64,000 bases of DNA from a virus (taxonomy: Duplodnaviria > Caudoviricetes), in the IMG/VR virus record IMGVR_UViG_3300006056_000001, positions 32,001 through 96,000 of that record; one strand, given 5' to 3'. Positions 29,077 to 61,431 of this stretch are shown one piece after another. Numbering within the stretch: the first letter of the stretch is position 1; the number at the start of each line of letters is the position of its first letter. The translations under genes and the position numbers were made by a program. Under the pieces are notes generated by a model. It was not told where the DNA came from. It saw nothing but the letters and a program-made list of their open reading frames with translations, and searched no databases.

Positions 29077-31953
29077 TTACAAAAAAGTGACAATCACATT
29101 TGTGACAGTTTCTGTCAAATACGAAGTAGCAAAAGCTTGTGAAATTTCTGAATGTACTAGAGCAACAGGTACATTTTCCATTTGTTTATTGCTTCCTGCA
29201 GAAACAGATACGTCTTTTCTAGTCATCCTTACTGGTACAGCAGGTACACTAACACTAGCAGAAATACTAGAAGTAGCAGTAGTTGTGAATGTTGAGGGTC
29301 TTAATATTAAAGAGGAAGATTCTACAGAAGCTTGAGCATTTATACTATTTACAACAATACTTGTAGTAATAGGAGGAATTACAAATGTAGAATGTAAAGG
29401 AGCCAAGTTAAAATAATAAACACTTGTGTCTAATAGATTTTGAACTAAGTAACCTGAGAAACTAAGCAGTATTTCTTCATAGTCTCCGTTGTCTACATTA
29501 TACACATTATGAAAGTAAGTAATAAGATCATTTGCTTTTTGTATAATAGCAGAATTATTAGAATAGAGTCCCAATAGAGCTGCCTCTCTTGCTATTACAG
29601 CATACTGTATTTCAATAGTATTGTAAACGTACCACATTCGGTGGTACTTTAAGTAGTTATATGGATAGTAAGGAGCAGTATAAGTTGTATCTTCCGCGCC
29701 ACTTCTAACATCTCTTTCTTCTTCTGTTAAATGATATCCATTTCCTGCAGAAGGAGAAGCTACTGCACAGGACACGTCTGCTTCAAAATCATACGCTCTT
29801 GTAATTACTACTTCAGATCCAGTTCTAAATCTTACTACATTGCCTACAAAGAACCCTCCTGTTGCATTTTTTAGATGTATTTTAACTGCTCTTAGGTTAT
29901 TGGCGGGAGAGTCTATATATGATAAATATATTTGACCAGATCCGCCTGTTGTTAAATTTGTTACAGTTTGTAAAGCAGGAGTGCCTATAGCAGAAAGAAA
30001 AGATTGTGCTTCTGATTCAGTATTAAAATTTATACTAAAGAACCTTCTATTAGAAGTAGTCCGGCCGTCGTTATAAGCATTCATTGTGCCGTTAGCTGCT
30101 ATATCTCTAGCTATTTCTAGCATTTTTAATCCCTGTGTATCGGAAGGGGATTCATTTAATATAGCTTTAGCGGCAAAATAGAAGCCTAAGCATGTAGCTG
30201 CTTCTTCCCAAGGCCTATAGTGTGTTAATGTATTTAAGCAACCAGGAAGCTCACATGGAGTAAGTCTAGTCATAGCTCTTACTCTTTCTATTCCTCCTGG
30301 ATAAATAGTTTTGTTTAAATATTCTGATCTACTTAAATTTAAGTTATATGTTAGGGCCGTTTTCATCCATGTTTTTAATGGAGCGTATCCGGTAGACTCA
30401 TAAATGAAAGAGCCCCATTCTTGTACACGTCCTGCCGCTCTAGCAGCAAAAGTATAACTATTTACATCAGAAGGGAACCCGCCGTAGTTATCTGATCTGT
30501 TAGCATATATCCAATATCTACTGTACATTTTTAGGAACTCTAGACTAAAATAGTCCATTGTAACTAAAGCTTGTATAACAAATAATTTATTAGTATAGTG
30601 TTCTTTATCAGGACCAAATATTTTCTGATTATTTGGAACTGCTCTTGGAAGGTCATTGTCAGAATCTAGACCTCTATTGAAACCTCTATACTTCTCACCG
30701 TTGTTGGTAAACCACAAGGTACCGTTCCATATCTTACAGCCGGCATTAAAGAATGTATCCGGATCAATTGGTTGTCCTGTAGAGTCTATATACCAATTAT
30801 GACGTGTAGCTTGTTGTCTAGTGCAGAATTCTAAATAAGGTATCCAGTTATAGTTACATGTAGATAAGAAAGGCCATCCTTTCATACCATAGGCATAGTC
30901 TCTATATCCGTGGCTTCCAGCAGAAGCTGTGTCTGGGTTATTACAGTTAGTGGGCCAGTTATAAGGGTCTCTAAGGCCCTTCATAGGCCCTTCTAGGAGG
31001 TTTAATAATGTGTTGCTCCTGGACAGTGCATCTGCATCAGAGGTGATGTAGGAAGGTCTGGGAGGCATTATACCAGTAATTGGGAAGTAGGTCTTCCAAT
31101 TTTCTGACATAGCTAGTATAGGACCGTCTTGCTCTGCTAATGAAGTTGAAGAGCTATTAAAAGTTATAATTCCCTTATAGGCATGTGACATTCCAGCAGC
31201 AAATCTATTTCTTGTGGATATAAAAGGGTTTATAAGAGTATAAGTTCTATCTGTAGCAGAGTTCTCTGTTATAGAAGGTATTTTATACTCTTCCCAGTAA
31301 ATCTTTGACTTACCTCCTAATATTCTAAGGGTTACAGGACTATTTAAATTTACAAAAGGAGAGACGCCTTGGTTATTTTCAAGAGTCGGCTCAAATCTAT
31401 AATAGCCAAATCTAAAATTAAAATGTATAAAGTCTAAATTAGAATATCCATCTAAGACTAGTTCTACCCAAAAATATCTTATTTGTGGATCTAAAGAATT
31501 TGGAAAATACTTGAATAATCTAAGTCTAATAAAATGATCTTCTGGTCCAGATCCTTCTATCACATTACTGACCATTTCATTTAATGGTAAATTATACTGA
31601 ACTCCTTGTATTGTCATTTGCACAAGAAGACTACTAAAATTAGTTACTAACGCATTTGAAAGAACAAAAGGAATAGCCGTGTAAGTAGGACTTTTTGAAA
31701 TATTAACTGTTTTTTCTTCATTCCCTGCTAAATCTACTTTAAAACTTGCTTTTGCATATTTTATACCGCCGTTATCCCATCTAGCTCCTACAGGAGACCA
31801 TTGTATTTTTTGATTACTATTACCAGATAATGCTCCTGAAACAACGAGGTTATCTGTAGTTTGTAAATTTTCTGCTCTAGAAAAAGGTATTCCTAGGGTT
31901 ACTACTCCTGTTCTGGAGTTGGATGAGTTATTTTTTATTTTAGCAGTAGACAT
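29077..31953 (-). CDS. RIFT-barrel / PcRGLX-YetA-like (polysaccharide lyase-like) virion-associated protein
   Basis: N-terminal VTLGIPF...IQWSPVGARWDNGGIKY matches the RIFT-barrel pattern. Start moved to ATG 31953 because ATG 31974 lies inside the capsid terminator stem. Confidence 0.55.
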   Translation of the reverse strand: MSTAKIKNNSSNSRTGVVTLGIPFSRAENLQTTDNLVVSGALSGNSNQKIQWSPVGARWDNGGIKYAKASFKVDLAGNEEKTVNISKSPTYTAIPFVLSNALVTNFSSLLVQMTIQGVQYNLPLNEMVSNVIEGSGPEDHFIRLRLFKYFPNSLDPQIRYFWVELVLDGYSNLDFIHFNFRFGYYRFEPTLENNQGVSPFVNLNSPVTLRILGGKSKIYWEEYKIPSITENSATDRTYTLINPFISTRNRFAAGMSHAYKGIITFNSSSTSLAEQDGPILAMSENWKTYFPITGIMPPRPSYITSDADALSRSNTLLNLLEGPMKGLRDPYNWPTNCNNPDTASAGSHGYRDYAYGMKGWPFLSTCNYNWIPYLEFCTRQQATRHNWYIDSTGQPIDPDTFFNAGCKIWNGTLWFTNNGEKYRGFNRGLDSDNDLPRAVPNNQKIFGPDKEHYTNKLFVIQALVTMDYFSLEFLKMYSRYWIYANRSDNYGGFPSDVNSYTFAARAAGRVQEWGSFIYESTGYAPLKTWMKTALTYNLNLSRSEYLNKTIYPGGIERVRAMTRLTPCELPGCLNTLTHYRPWEEAATCLGFYFAAKAILNESPSDTQGLKMLEIARDIAANGTMNAYNDGRTTSNRRFFSINFNTESEAQSFLSAIGTPALQTVTNLTTGGSGQIYLSYIDSPANNLRAVKIHLKNATGGFFVGNVVRFRTGSEVVITRAYDFEADVSCAVASPSAGNGYHLTEEERDVRSGAEDTTYTAPYYPYNYLKYHRMWYVYNTIEIQYAVIAREAALLGLYSNNSAIIQKANDLITYFHNVYNVDNGDYEEILLSFSGYLVQNLLDTSVYYFNLAPLHSTFVIPPITTSIVVNSINAQASVESSSLILRPSTFTTTATSSISASVSVPAVPVRMTRKDVSVSAGSNKQMENVPVALVHSEISQAFATSYLTETVTNVIVTFL

Positions 31954-46762: not shown

Positions 46763-47059
46763 AGGTATCCTTTGGAGAGTAATAGATACCCATCGAATTT
46801 GGACCAACAATATTCTAAGAACCGCGAGAGTGTCAAATATTTGCCTTATAGAGATAAAATTTAAAAAAATATATAAAAAAATTAATGCCAATTTATATAA
46901 TCAAAATATTGCCCTAAGCTTGTTAAAAAATTACAATTTTGGAGATGATAGTTGTTGATTATGTTGCTGCAAGACGTTCTTGCGGAACACGGTCACCCCT
47001 GTCTTTTGAGACGAAGACAGGTGAACTCAAGGTCTCAAGCCTTAGGAGGCTTTTCTATC

Positions 47060-47443
47060 ATGAGCACGAAGCTCTCGTTCGTCGTTCTGTTGGTGTGTGT
47101 GTTGGCCATGCAGTTTGGCCTGTTGGCGTCTGTGCCTCTCGCTGATGCGGTCCTGCCTTGGATCGCTGCGTTCGCGGTGCTCAGCGTCTGCTGGCCGATC
47201 GTGTCCTTGGTCTTGGGCATGTTCGGTGTCTTGGCCTTCGATGAGAAGAAGGCGCCGATCGTTGAGTATGACCTGAGCAAGCCAGGCCACAAGTTCGGCT
47301 ACATGGCATCGCTCATCGTCGGCAAGGCAGTGCGTGTGGTGCGCAAGGGTGCCTCTACCGTGCTCAATACGGCAGGCAAGTGGGTTGAGCCCAAGCCGGC
47401 CAAGGCCCGCCGTGTGGTCGTCCAGCCCTTGTTCAAGGACTGA
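47060..47443 (+). CDS. Membrane protein (GC-rich early gene)
   Basis: AGGAGG RBS at 47044; two hydrophobic helices. Confidence 0.7.
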   Translation: MSTKLSFVVLLVCVLAMQFGLLASVPLADAVLPWIAAFAVLSVCWPIVSLVLGMFGVLAFDEKKAPIVEYDLSKPGHKFGYMASLIVGKAVRVVRKGASTVLNTAGKWVEPKPAKARRVVVQPLFKD

Positions 47444-47509
47444 GATGGACATAGGTGATGTGACCTACCTACATACAAGTGGTCACATTTCTTGATACTG
47501 GAGGGTATC

Positions 47510-47632
47510 ATGCAGTACCGTGATGAGCGTGGTCGTTTCGCCAAGAGCGAAGTCCTGTGGAAGAAGATTGCGGTGCAGACTTTGTACTGTGCCGTGGTGT
47601 TCTACGTCTTTGGCTGCTTTGCCATGATGTAG
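47510..47632 (+). CDS. Small membrane peptide
   Basis: GGAGG RBS; MQYRDERGRFAKSEVLWKKIAVQTLYCAVVFYVFGCFAMM (40 aa, below the ORF-track cutoff). Confidence 0.6.
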   Translation: MQYRDERGRFAKSEVLWKKIAVQTLYCAVVFYVFGCFAMM

Positions 47633-47731
47633 GACTTGGGCTTGGCTAGTCTGTGCCCTTAAACATGACTAGATCATTGGGTGTTGTGGCCTACCTATAT
47701 TAAAAGGGCTACATTTGAAGGAGTTAGAAGC

Positions 47732-47974
47732 ATGACTCAAAATATTGAGTCGTATCGTCTAGACATGGAGTATACGTCCAGCAATGGATGGAAGCATCAT
47801 GTCCAAGCCACTTGCTATAAGTGCAAGTGGTGTGGTGAGAAGTGGGAGCCTGCCTATTATGGTCAGGACTCTCGCTGGTGGTGTGGGGCCTGGGATCATA
47901 GGTGTCCTAAGGCCCCAAAGGTCCCGGTTGTGCCTGCTGCTGAGGTAGAGCAACAGGCTGGCTGGGACGTCTGA
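47732..47974 (+). CDS. Small Cys/Trp-rich hypothetical protein
   Basis: AAGGAG RBS; CKWC...HRC. Confidence 0.6.
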   Translation: MTQNIESYRLDMEYTSSNGWKHHVQATCYKCKWCGEKWEPAYYGQDSRWWCGAWDHRCPKAPKVPVVPAAEVEQQAGWDV

Positions 47975-48140
47975 GGGCTAACGACCTGAATCAAGTCGTA
48001 AAACTGATTCGTAGGACAGGCATTGGGGCTATGCCATAAAAGCTCCATCATTCCCGTAGTGTATTGCTACGGGGCAGGAGTCTAGATATTAACAATGGTG
48101 CGAAGCACCATGTATCTGGACACTTTGTACTGGAGGCACC

Positions 48141-48368
48141 ATGTCAGAAAACATGCGGGAGATCCTTGTAGATCTCCGTAGAGTCCTTGACGAGATCAAG
48201 GATATCGAGCAACAACGGGCGCGTGCCCGTAAGGCTTTTGACTCTCGCCTAGTAGAGAGTCTGGAAACTGACCTTCGTAAGTTCGAAGGCAGGCGTAACG
48301 CTTTGGCCGCTCTGGCCAGGCTGAAAGGCATCTCCCCTGAGGAGATGAGGAGTGTGCTCTTTGGATAG
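48141..48368 (+). CDS. Hypothetical coiled-coil protein
   Basis: GGAGG RBS; 75 aa. Confidence 0.65.
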   Translation: MSENMREILVDLRRVLDEIKDIEQQRARARKAFDSRLVESLETDLRKFEGRRNALAALARLKGISPEEMRSVLFG

Positions 48369-48618
48369 GCAACAAGTTAGGTATCGAGTCAAGAAATTGC
48401 TCGAGAACCTGAAGTCTCAGCGTGAAGCTGAGTTGCTCCGTAGCGCCAGTATTGCTGGTGCGAGTGCTGCCAGCAGCGTGCTGGTCTTGGTCTTCCTTGA
48501 TGATAACATCAAGAGGGCTGAGTCGGTGTTGGAGCGCATCCCTGTGCTCTGCACCTCGTGTGGACACAGGTATCCCGAACGTGCAGGGCTGTGTTTGCCC
48601 TGTATGTTTGAGAACTAA
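48352..48618 (+). CDS. Hypothetical protein with C-terminal Zn finger
   Basis: CTSC...CLPC; GTG start with GAGGAG. Confidence 0.5.
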   Translation: MCSLDRQQVRYRVKKLLENLKSQREAELLRSASIAGASAASSVLVLVFLDDNIKRAESVLERIPVLCTSCGHRYPERAGLCLPCMFEN

Positions 48619-48696
48619 CCGGGCGGGTAGTCCCTTACTACTAAGGTTGCAAGATTAACCTGACACCTGGACACATTGTACAGGGCGAAAATCTGA

Positions 48697-60909: not shown

Positions 60910-61115
60910 TGGGCTTTCTAATTTTCTGGTGTTTACTTTCGTTATTGCCTGCTATTGCAGCAGTTAAAGCAGATTGTGAAAGAGGTGTATCTTTTATAAT
61001 ACTAATCTTAAGCTTCGTGCTTACGTTCATAACGTGGCCTTTATTTTTATATCTATTTTTCTATTATTGTTTTGCTGAACATCAATACTTATTTAAAAAG
61101 TATTATCCAGAATAG
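60909..61115 (+). CDS. Small two-TM membrane protein
   Basis: 68 aa, hydrophobic. Confidence 0.55.
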   Translation: MGFLIFWCLLSLLPAIAAVKADCERGVSFIILILSFVLTFITWPLFLYLFFYYCFAEHQYLFKKYYPE

Positions 61116-61431
61116 TGGATCTGGCCACTTAAAATAGGCTAATAAGCCAGAAGCGTTGTCAGATAGTTGACAGGAAGCGACTCCAAATCCTAGATGGATG
61201 TCTAGACATCTAAGTGCAGGCTGGTCTGGGATGTCGTTTGTAATTACTGTAGGTGGAGAAATCTGCCGAACAAGTGTACAAATCCTACGCTTACAGTTCG
61301 CGTTAGGCCGGGTCAATTTGTGAACTATTGATCTGGTCTTTAAGAGATATTCCCTCTTTAACCTGCTTGGGATAGGTTAATTCCCACGATAGCAGGACCT
61401 AGGGAAGATAGAACGACTGTCCTTTTTCTTT
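61116..61431 (+). ncRNA. Candidate ~300-nt multi-stem ncRNA
   Basis: Closing GATCTGGCC/GGCCGGGTC; inner stems GGCT/AGCC, TGTCA/TGACA, TAGATG/CATCTA, GTAGG/CCTAC, GGTGGA-GAAA-TCTGCC; 3' CCTGCT/AGCAGG. Confidence 0.55.

Follow-up and report, generated by a model that had tools for sequence, protein, structure and literature searches.

Conserved interleaved-helix RNA elements in the leader and spacers of a phage operon

Introduction

Structured RNA serves several purposes in phage and bacterial transcripts. T4 gp32, RegA and ribosomal-protein leaders exemplify translational control by proteins that bind operators, and the early genes of T7 have RNase III processing hairpins, where the upstream mRNA is stabilised by the stem that remains at its 3′ end. 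The T2/T4 gene 32 knot is a compact phage mRNA pseudoknot with two coaxially stacked A-form stems in the 5′ leader (PMC3014915), the PeSLs of T4-like phages join a terminator stem-loop to an early promoter (PMC2839356, PMC4122927), and ToxI and pseudo-ToxI consist of ~36-nt pseudoknotted units that have A-rich tails and can be phage-encoded (PMC3475682, PMC5086642). Here, we analysed a stretch of 64,000 nucleotides (the window), bases 32001–96000 of the virus record IMGVR_UViG_3300006056_000001 (Caudoviricetes), for which a preliminary description had proposed six H-type pseudoknots between the first early genes. We describe seven compact interleaved-helix elements, PK1 to PK7, which lie with several hairpins in the leader and intercistronic spacers of one plus-strand operon, and of which several are probably true H-type pseudoknots. 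Together they constitute putative cis-acting RNA motifs absent from Rfam, used as repeated punctuation of one operon, and belong to neither the gene 32 nor the PeSL class.

In geometry, the closest described system is the gene 32 pseudoknot, to whose classical type PK4, PK5 and PK6 correspond in loop and stem sizes, with a stem 2 of 6–8 bp crossed by a loop of 0–2 nt and a loop of 5–9 nt over a stem 1 of 5–6 bp. In gene 32, however, the knot precedes the start codon by 67 nt, and from it gp32 is nucleated along an A+U-rich tract that is unstructured and covers the ribosome-binding site (RBS), whereas the operon studied here has seven elements, several of them after stop codons, structured RNA downstream of them and no gene for a single-stranded DNA-binding protein. 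A gene 32-type operator was rejected because the downstream RNA forms hairpins that present the Shine–Dalgarno (SD) sequence rather than such a tract; no UUAAA repeats were found between knot and RBS. In genomic behaviour, the closest system is the PeSL, a short conserved intergenic motif at exchange points of variable ORFan genes in a plastic region, and this locus likewise has conserved intergenic motifs flanking exchanged, unrelated open reading frames (ORFs). Unlike PeSLs, the spacers carry no detectable promoter or terminator and hold transcribed, covarying RNA structures within one transcription unit, and PeSL membership was rejected because the promoter–terminator composite is absent from them.

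The T7 early transcript shares with this operon the presence of structured RNA in each polycistronic spacer, but RNase III there cuts hairpins that are long and irregular, while the elements described here are interleaved helices of 23–41 nt, often two together. The preQ1-I riboswitch is likewise an H-type knot of ~34 nt with an A-rich 3′ loop adjoining the SD; in our elements, by contrast, stem 2 has 6–8 Watson–Crick pairs and needs no ligand, and the riboswitch was rejected because it gave no Rfam match at E ≤ 10 and its ligand-binding nucleotides were not found. An Rfam scan at gathering thresholds, and with cmscan of 46900–48200 at E ≤ 10, returned nothing relevant, neither ToxI or another antitoxin nor preQ1. 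Unlike ToxI, the elements are not arranged in tandem, have at least five different sequences and show no conserved cleavage motif between units, and a ToxI mimic was rejected on these grounds together with the lack of an Rfam match. The two related copies, PK2 and PK4, lie at a distance of 225 nt from each other, on either side of a gene, and the 190-kb genome contains no further ones. In favour of a mimic, PK2 probably shares with ToxI an initial AGGUGAU and an internal CUACCU. The precedents named in the preliminary description, ToxI and the gene 32 operator, do not apply: there is no Rfam match, there are no tandem repeats, runs of AAAA are not conserved and the gene 32 layout is absent.

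Results

Seven elements in the leader and spacers

All of the elements are encoded on the plus strand. PK1 (46998–47038), in the leader, pairs 46998–47005 with 47014–47021 in a stem 1 of 8 bp and 47006–47012 with 47032–47038 in a stem 2 of 7 bp, leaving loops 1, 2 and 3 of 0, 1 and 10 nt. In the same order of stems and loops, PK2 (47452–47488) has 6 and 8 bp and 0/0/9 nt; PK3 (47638–47672) has 4 bp (GGGC/GCCC) and 6 bp (CTAGTC/GACTAG) and 4/3/8 nt; PK4 (47678–47713) has 6 and 7 bp and 1/0/9 nt; PK5 (47981–48010) has 5 bp (ACGAC/GTCGT) and 6 bp (GAATCA/TGATTC) and 2/1/5 nt; and PK6 (48019–48047) has 5 bp (GGCAT/ATGCC) and 7 bp (TGGGGCT/AGCTCCA) and 0/0/5 nt. The six pairs of stems given in the preliminary description proved exact, and our own H-type enumerator recovered them independently among its top candidates. 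PK7 (48620–48642), which is additional to these six, combines (A/C)GGG/CCCT with GGTAGT/ACTACT and has loops of 2, 0 and 1 nt. The crossing order of helices (i<k<j<l) is found in PK7 as in the other six.

The elements are placed close to the ends and beginnings of cistrons. PK2, PK3, PK5 and PK7 start about 2–10 nt past a stop codon in the window and in related loci; the distances in the window are 8 nt after gene 1, 5 nt after gene 2 and 6 nt after gene 3, and PK7 starts 1–2 nt past the stop codon of gene 5. PK1, PK2 and PK4 end 5, 11 and 4 nt before AGGAGG, GGAGG and AAGGAG, respectively, in agreement with the earlier observation that three elements sit 5′ of an SD sequence. Spacers 2 and 3 each begin with a pair of elements and a short single-stranded linker (47673–47677 and 48011–48018), and the spacers as a whole are 66–166 nt long, untranslated and almost fully structured. 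Since PK2, PK3 and PK5 begin 5–8 nt after stop codons, a stimulator of read-through or frameshifting was considered as well; it was rejected because further in-frame stops are reached after a few codons, the spacers vary in length among relatives and there is no slippery site.

Conservation in related loci

Relatives were collected from metagenome assemblies through homologues of the 473-aa and 127-aa operon proteins (52–96% identity), whose contigs were fetched, and through one metagenome pattern scan. They represent nine distinct loci: L004/L005 (from a 190-kb relative), L007, L008, L009, L012/L013, L014, L015, L016 and L017. No relatives were found among IMG/VR and GenBank phages, the phage database gave no DNA match, and viral contigs yielded no useful relatives when queried with the 477-aa protein, the 127-aa protein, the protease or a 20-mer of PK6. 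Two candidates were discarded. L002 was the only match when viral contigs were scanned with a degenerate PK2/PK4 pattern; its partner strand for stem 2 is missing, and one such match is roughly the chance expectation. L018, from a scan of genome contigs, is a spurious match to a transmembrane segment without elements.

The leader is 92–96% identical between the window and its relatives, as compared to 68–74% for the coding sequence (CDS) of gene 1, and spacer 4 is 87–99% identical, as compared to 65–74% for the CDS of gene 6; the corresponding values are 88–96% for spacer 2 and 82–98% for spacer 3. Overall, leader and spacers are 82–100% identical, while the flanking genes are 65–75% identical or have been replaced outright. 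At the level of sequence, these comparisons show that the elements are under stronger constraint than the ORFs and that the spacers are the most constrained part of the operon. Because their insertions and deletions are single nucleotides, the spacers are non-coding. Within the 190-kb genome, the element sequences are confined to this operon.

Covariation of the helices

Covariation was read from covariance model alignments combined with our own parsing, as MAFFT misaligned one PK2 copy and a 1-nt indel in PK3. A covariance model of the PK2/PK4 family (R1, built on stem 2) scored PK2 at 66.7 bits and PK4 at 72.7 bits and detected 17 copies, none outside these operons, that represent 14 distinct sequences. 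Four pairs of stem 2 are changed on both sides among the 14 distinct members, in 12 cells. The earlier claim that the copies at 47452 and 47678 are homologous, with differences that preserve pairing, is thereby confirmed and extended to the whole family. Stem 1 of this family, AGGU(G)/(U)ACCU, has no compensatory change and is 95% paired, its variation being A-U to G.U, U-A to U.G and a few broken outer pairs. A single shared RNA device, as the preliminary description had it, is not what we find: only PK2 and PK4 are homologous, and the other elements are separate sequence families with a common architecture.

In PK7, both crossing helices covary, with stem 1 changing from G-C to C-G in 2 sequences and stem 2 from U-A to A-U in 3, and 97.5% of its cells are paired. 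Stem 2 of PK5 has three pairs with compensatory changes (L014, L015), and its stem 1 varies between A-U and G.U. PK3 shows one compensatory change from G-C to A-U in stem 1, in its second copy in L015, and the outer pair of stem 1 is found as U.U, G.U or A-U; its stem 2 is invariant. The stems of PK1 are invariant in 8 loci apart from two A-to-G changes that give U.G (L008 and L017); it has no compensatory change, and only the two middle bases of its loop 3 vary freely. PK6 is invariant in stem 1 and varies only between G-C and G.U in stem 2, whose outer pair is lost in L004 and L007. Across the 282 cells of all parsed stems, the non-Watson–Crick cells comprise 11 G.U, no A.C and 4 others. Because the mismatches are G.U and never A.C, the structure forms on the sense RNA, not on the DNA or the antisense strand.

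Judged from these comparisons, the spacers are real structured RNA on one transcript, and most elements have good support for the stronger of their helices. The proposal of six H-type pseudoknots holds in so far as they are conserved RNA structures in which one helix covaries in PK2/PK4, PK5 and PK3, whereas covariation of both helices is seen only in PK7. A pseudoknot is thus demonstrated by covariation for PK7 only, and it is plausible for the other six.

Chance and energy tests

The leader and three spacers (431 nt) contain 7 non-overlapping candidates with a stacking energy of at most −18 kcal/mol, as compared to 0.76 ± 0.87, and a maximum of 4, in 300 dinucleotide shuffles; this threshold was set at the weakest claimed element and so favours the pseudoknot claim. 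The comparison with shuffled spacers, which the preliminary description had suggested, therefore leaves its claim standing. The neighbouring CDS gave 11 candidates as compared to 5.27 ± 1.78 in shuffles, an enrichment of about 2-fold. Shuffling of everything but the stronger stem of an element produced a crossing stem of equal quality in 2–17% of trials.

For nested minimum free energy, the z-score was −3.85 for the leader, −2.4 and −3.0 for spacer 3 (−2.99 for its hairpin at 48080..48121) and +0.39 for spacer 2, which holds PK3 and PK4. Since the nested energy of spacer 2 is ordinary yet its sequence is 88–96% conserved, nested folding does not explain its constraint. Loop 3 of the elements is rich in A (25 of 46 nt, 54%, as compared to 26% in the spacers overall; p = 5e-5), which upholds the earlier remark that this loop contains A; the runs of TAAAA that were said to be frequent in it fared less well, as AAAA is not conserved in relatives. 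The junction loop, loop 2, is 0–1 nt long in six of the seven elements. A loop 2 of this length together with an A-rich loop 3 is the pattern expected for coaxially stacked H-type knots, and the loop spans of PK3, PK4 and PK5 fit textbook geometry.

Genes exchanged between conserved elements

The same elements enclose different genes in different loci. PK3–PK4 upstream and PK5 downstream enclose an 80-aa Cys-rich gene in the window, L004, L014 and L016, and an unrelated 104-aa gene in L007, L008, L012 and L015. PK4-type elements occur three times and PK3-type elements twice in L015. A different gene precedes PK3 in L017, and conservation starts exactly at the first base of PK3 stem 1 even where the upstream gene differs. 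In L012 (7027–7660), the homologue of gene 5 is split by an inserted cassette of PK4, a Cys-rich gene and PK5; the outer edges of PK4 and PK5 are also the borders of the insert, the 5′ part of gene 5 terminates with a stop codon inside PK4, and its last 15 codons persist after PK5. These arrangements show, as far as sequence can, that the elements stay attached to genes that are swapped or moved.

The spacers of the relatives also differ in other ways. In L016 (560–600) and L017 (620–660), PK2 is replaced by another interleaved element, with stem 1 (C/U)CCU/AGGG and stem 2 GCUAG(A/G)A/UUCUAGC, which occupies the corresponding position ahead of the gene 2 SD hairpin. L004, L014 and L015 have extra covarying hairpins in spacer 1.

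Operon layout and hairpins

The operon extends from ~46945 to 50300, with six plus-strand genes between a predicted promoter at 46909–46937 and a terminator-like hairpin at 50274–50291: gene 1 (47060–47443), gene 2 (47510–47632), gene 3 (47732–47974), gene 4 (48141–48368), gene 5 (48352–48618) and gene 6 (48709–50130). The promoter, identified by a consensus scan only, is a plus-strand sigma-70-like sequence (TTGCCC, 17 nt, TACAAT) that heads the operon in a divergent region, and its −10 position is retained in relatives as read by eye. The plus-strand GC hairpin that closes the operon after the gene for the 473-aa protein comes from a pattern scan only. A pattern scan of the plus strand from 46937 to 50274 found no internal promoter or terminator besides two matches: the terminator-like match at 48469–48485 falls within the coding sequence of gene 5, and the promoter-like match at 47482–47511 overlaps a start codon and was rejected as a spacer promoter, because transcription from it would begin downstream of the ATG. 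Position, layout and the sigma-70-like promoter suggest that the operon is early. The six operon proteins, which include small Cys-rich proteins, have no Pfam or PHROG matches, and no RNA-binding domain was found in them; the AlphaFold model of the 473-aa protein was too poor for a structure search (predicted local distance difference test score, pLDDT, 47.8).

Three SDs are shown in, or adjoin, small conserved hairpins on the plus strand. The SD of gene 1 occupies the loop and 3′ arm of the hairpin AAGCCT/AGGCTT (47037..47052), whose stem is retained in relatives with a loop of 4, 5 or 7 nt. The SD of gene 2 (GGAGG) lies in the loop of GATAC/GTATC (47494..47509), directly followed by the ATG, and this hairpin is conserved in L004, L008, L012, L014 and L015. 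Upstream of the SD of gene 4 is a long two-part hairpin enclosing GGTGC-GAA-GCACC (48080..48121, +), in which RNAalifold reports two outer pairs changed on both sides, in 3 sequences each. A simple hairpin of 8–9 bp (48052..48074, +) has one compensatory pair and several one-sided changes by the same program. The leader begins with hairpin H0 (46967..46985, +; 8-bp stem, 3-nt loop), which persists in relatives as a hairpin with a changed stem: GCAAGA/TCTTGC in the window, GAGAA/TTCTC in L012 and GAGAAA/TTTCTC in L017. A repeated motif, CTGGACAC(T/A)TTGTAC(T/A)GG, occurs at 48115–48131 and 48664–48684 of the window, in each case ahead of a gene start (genes 4 and 6), and is conserved in relatives.

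Genomic context

The virus record is 189,716 bp long and has direct terminal repeats. On the minus strand of the window lie genes for a capsid protein, a tail sheath and a trypsin-like protease, and the capsid is 26–33% identical to those of Moorella and Bacillus jumbo myoviruses, a distant relationship. Genome-wide G+C is ~33%, and 46950–50200 is the highest-G+C stretch of the genome, with 48–60% per 200-nt window and one exception, a spacer window at 43.5%. This island begins at the strand switch and stops near the hairpin at 50274..50291. Because the operon is also GC-rich in the relatives L004, L008, L012, L014 and L015, as read by eye, its composition is probably an old trait of the phage group and not a recent import. 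G+C forms a gene-by-gene mosaic in 46950–53800 of the window, with 20–30% at 52000–53200 and 55–63% at 53200–53800.

Three relatives carry a minus-strand GIY-YIG endonuclease gene between the protease gene and the operon promoter (L004:2073–2537, L014:2091–2555, L015:189–653). Since the window is without this gene, its distribution suggests the insertion of a free-standing homing endonuclease. Further along the same rightward gene block, a Pistol self-cleaving ribozyme (RF02679) was found at 61114–61179 (+) with 42.5 bits, as compared to a gathering threshold of 34.5. ARAGORN called a tRNA with anticodon CUA (labelled Pyl) at 30937–31010 (+); as the site lies inside a 965-aa minus-strand ORF, the call either is false or marks a suppressor tRNA that overlaps this gene.

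Discussion

We propose, with a probability of roughly 0.45, that the elements are cis-acting cistron end-caps and RBS insulators that double as cassette boundaries. They would act in cis on the polycistronic mRNA, where an element after a stop codon may block 3′-to-5′ decay of the upstream cistron, and an element before an SD may block 5′-to-3′ decay and keep the RBS from pairing with the upstream cassette. The linkers at 47673–47677 and 48011–48018 would be the likely entry points of an endonuclease. As they are the only long conserved stretches, the elements would in addition offer patches of homology at which cassettes can be exchanged. The supposed effect on decay and translation is drawn from T7 early-mRNA processing stems and from 5′ stabilisers. 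On a wider view, which is possible and clearly more doubtful, a group of uncultivated jumbo myoviruses would pack each small early gene as an expression cassette with a 5′ knot and SD and a 3′ knot after the stop codon, and the knots would cap the cistron against exonucleases, insulate the RBS and permit exchange, or insertion into other genes, without loss of expression. Such cassettes would be an RNA-level counterpart of PeSLs and integron cassettes.

Several observations count against this proposal. The role in protection from decay is an analogy only, and the sole clue to the host is the capsid, which links the phage distantly to jumbo phages of Bacillus and Moorella. Among the six elements first listed, at most one helix has compensatory support, while the second helix is invariant and neither supports nor refutes a knot. 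Stem 1 of PK5 contains a C.U mismatch in two loci (L007 and L012), and RNAalifold gives the 5′ arm of PK6 stem 1 an alternative long-range partner. No element is significant by energy alone: single elements are weak, with 80-nt window z-scores of −1.5 to −2.2 that several coding windows equal, and once a generic knot penalty of ~9 kcal/mol is charged, the knot is clearly favoured over the nested fold in PK6 only, with PK4 tied, by our own estimate. Loop 1 of 0 nt in PK1, PK2 and PK6 and loop 3 of 1 nt in PK7 are too tight for all pairs to form together, so that a terminal pair must open in these four. Finally, the high identity of the spacers could come in part from recombination and not from selection.

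The nearly invariant loops and arms (AGGU/ACCU of PK2/PK4, the whole stem 2 of PK3, stem 1 of PK6 and UAAA in most of the third loops) suggest sequence-specific recognition, which would suit operators bound by one or more trans-acting phage or host proteins that repress or time the translation of each cistron; several elements adjoin SD sites, and the operon has small Cys-rich proteins. We consider such operators unlikely, as the elements have at least five unrelated sequences and would need several binders or a reader of structure only, the operon proteins lack a recognisable RNA-binding domain, and PK5 and PK7, which stand just after stop codons and far from the next SD, are hard to explain in this way. 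The exchange of genes between identical spacers and the weak pseudoknot statistics of each element would agree with spacers that are mainly recombination linkers, similar to the PeSLs for which T4-like phages offer a precedent (PMC2839356, PMC4122927), homogenised by exchange and with interleaved stems that are incidental or simple hairpins. Homogenisation, however, does not create compensatory substitutions or a mismatch pattern restricted to G.U, crossing helices outnumber those in shuffles 9-fold in the spacers as compared to 2-fold in CDS, and the spacers are without the promoter-plus-terminator pair that defines a PeSL; pure linkers of this kind are improbable.

An action on transcription, either through put- or nut-like resistance to termination or through structure that denies Rho loading in untranslated gaps, would be compatible with a first element ~55 nt past the promoter and with long (66–166 nt), untranslated, almost fully structured spacers. 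It is highly improbable in our view: there is no Rfam similarity to put or nut families, a polymerase-modifying signal needs no seven different elements, and no internal terminators that would have to be overridden are evident. Compact pseudoknot-like units with A-rich single-stranded stretches also recall decoys for a host type III toxin (ToxN, AbiQ or CptN), like the pseudo-ToxI of PhiTE, given that these toxins cleave A-rich sites (AA/AU, A/AAAA and A/AAA; PMC5086642) and that phage mimicry of ToxI is known (PMC3475682). Such decoys have very little in their favour here, since no ToxI match appears in Rfam at E ≤ 10, the copies are single and separated by genes rather than tandem, the AAAA runs are replaced in most relatives by TAAAC in PK5 and ATAAG in PK6, and the A-runs lie inside loop 3, where cleavage would not free the knot. 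That single elements are not significant and coding windows yield equally good candidates might even point to chance interleaving of inverted repeats picked by eye from GC-rich sequence, which is barely credible against a joint count of 7 where 0.76 is expected, conservation above the level of CDS, and covariation.

If the proposed end-caps and insulators are real, they would represent several families of cis-acting RNA that are new and missing from Rfam, and would be a rare case in a bacterial virus of pseudoknots repeated as punctuation of a polycistronic mRNA, as compared to their single use in frameshifting or autoregulation. Compact natural insulator and end-cap elements may also be useful parts for operon design. 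Constraint in this operon is strongest in the non-coding spacers rather than in the genes, and the proposed function would tie RNA structure to the shuffling of ORFan genes in phage accessory regions.

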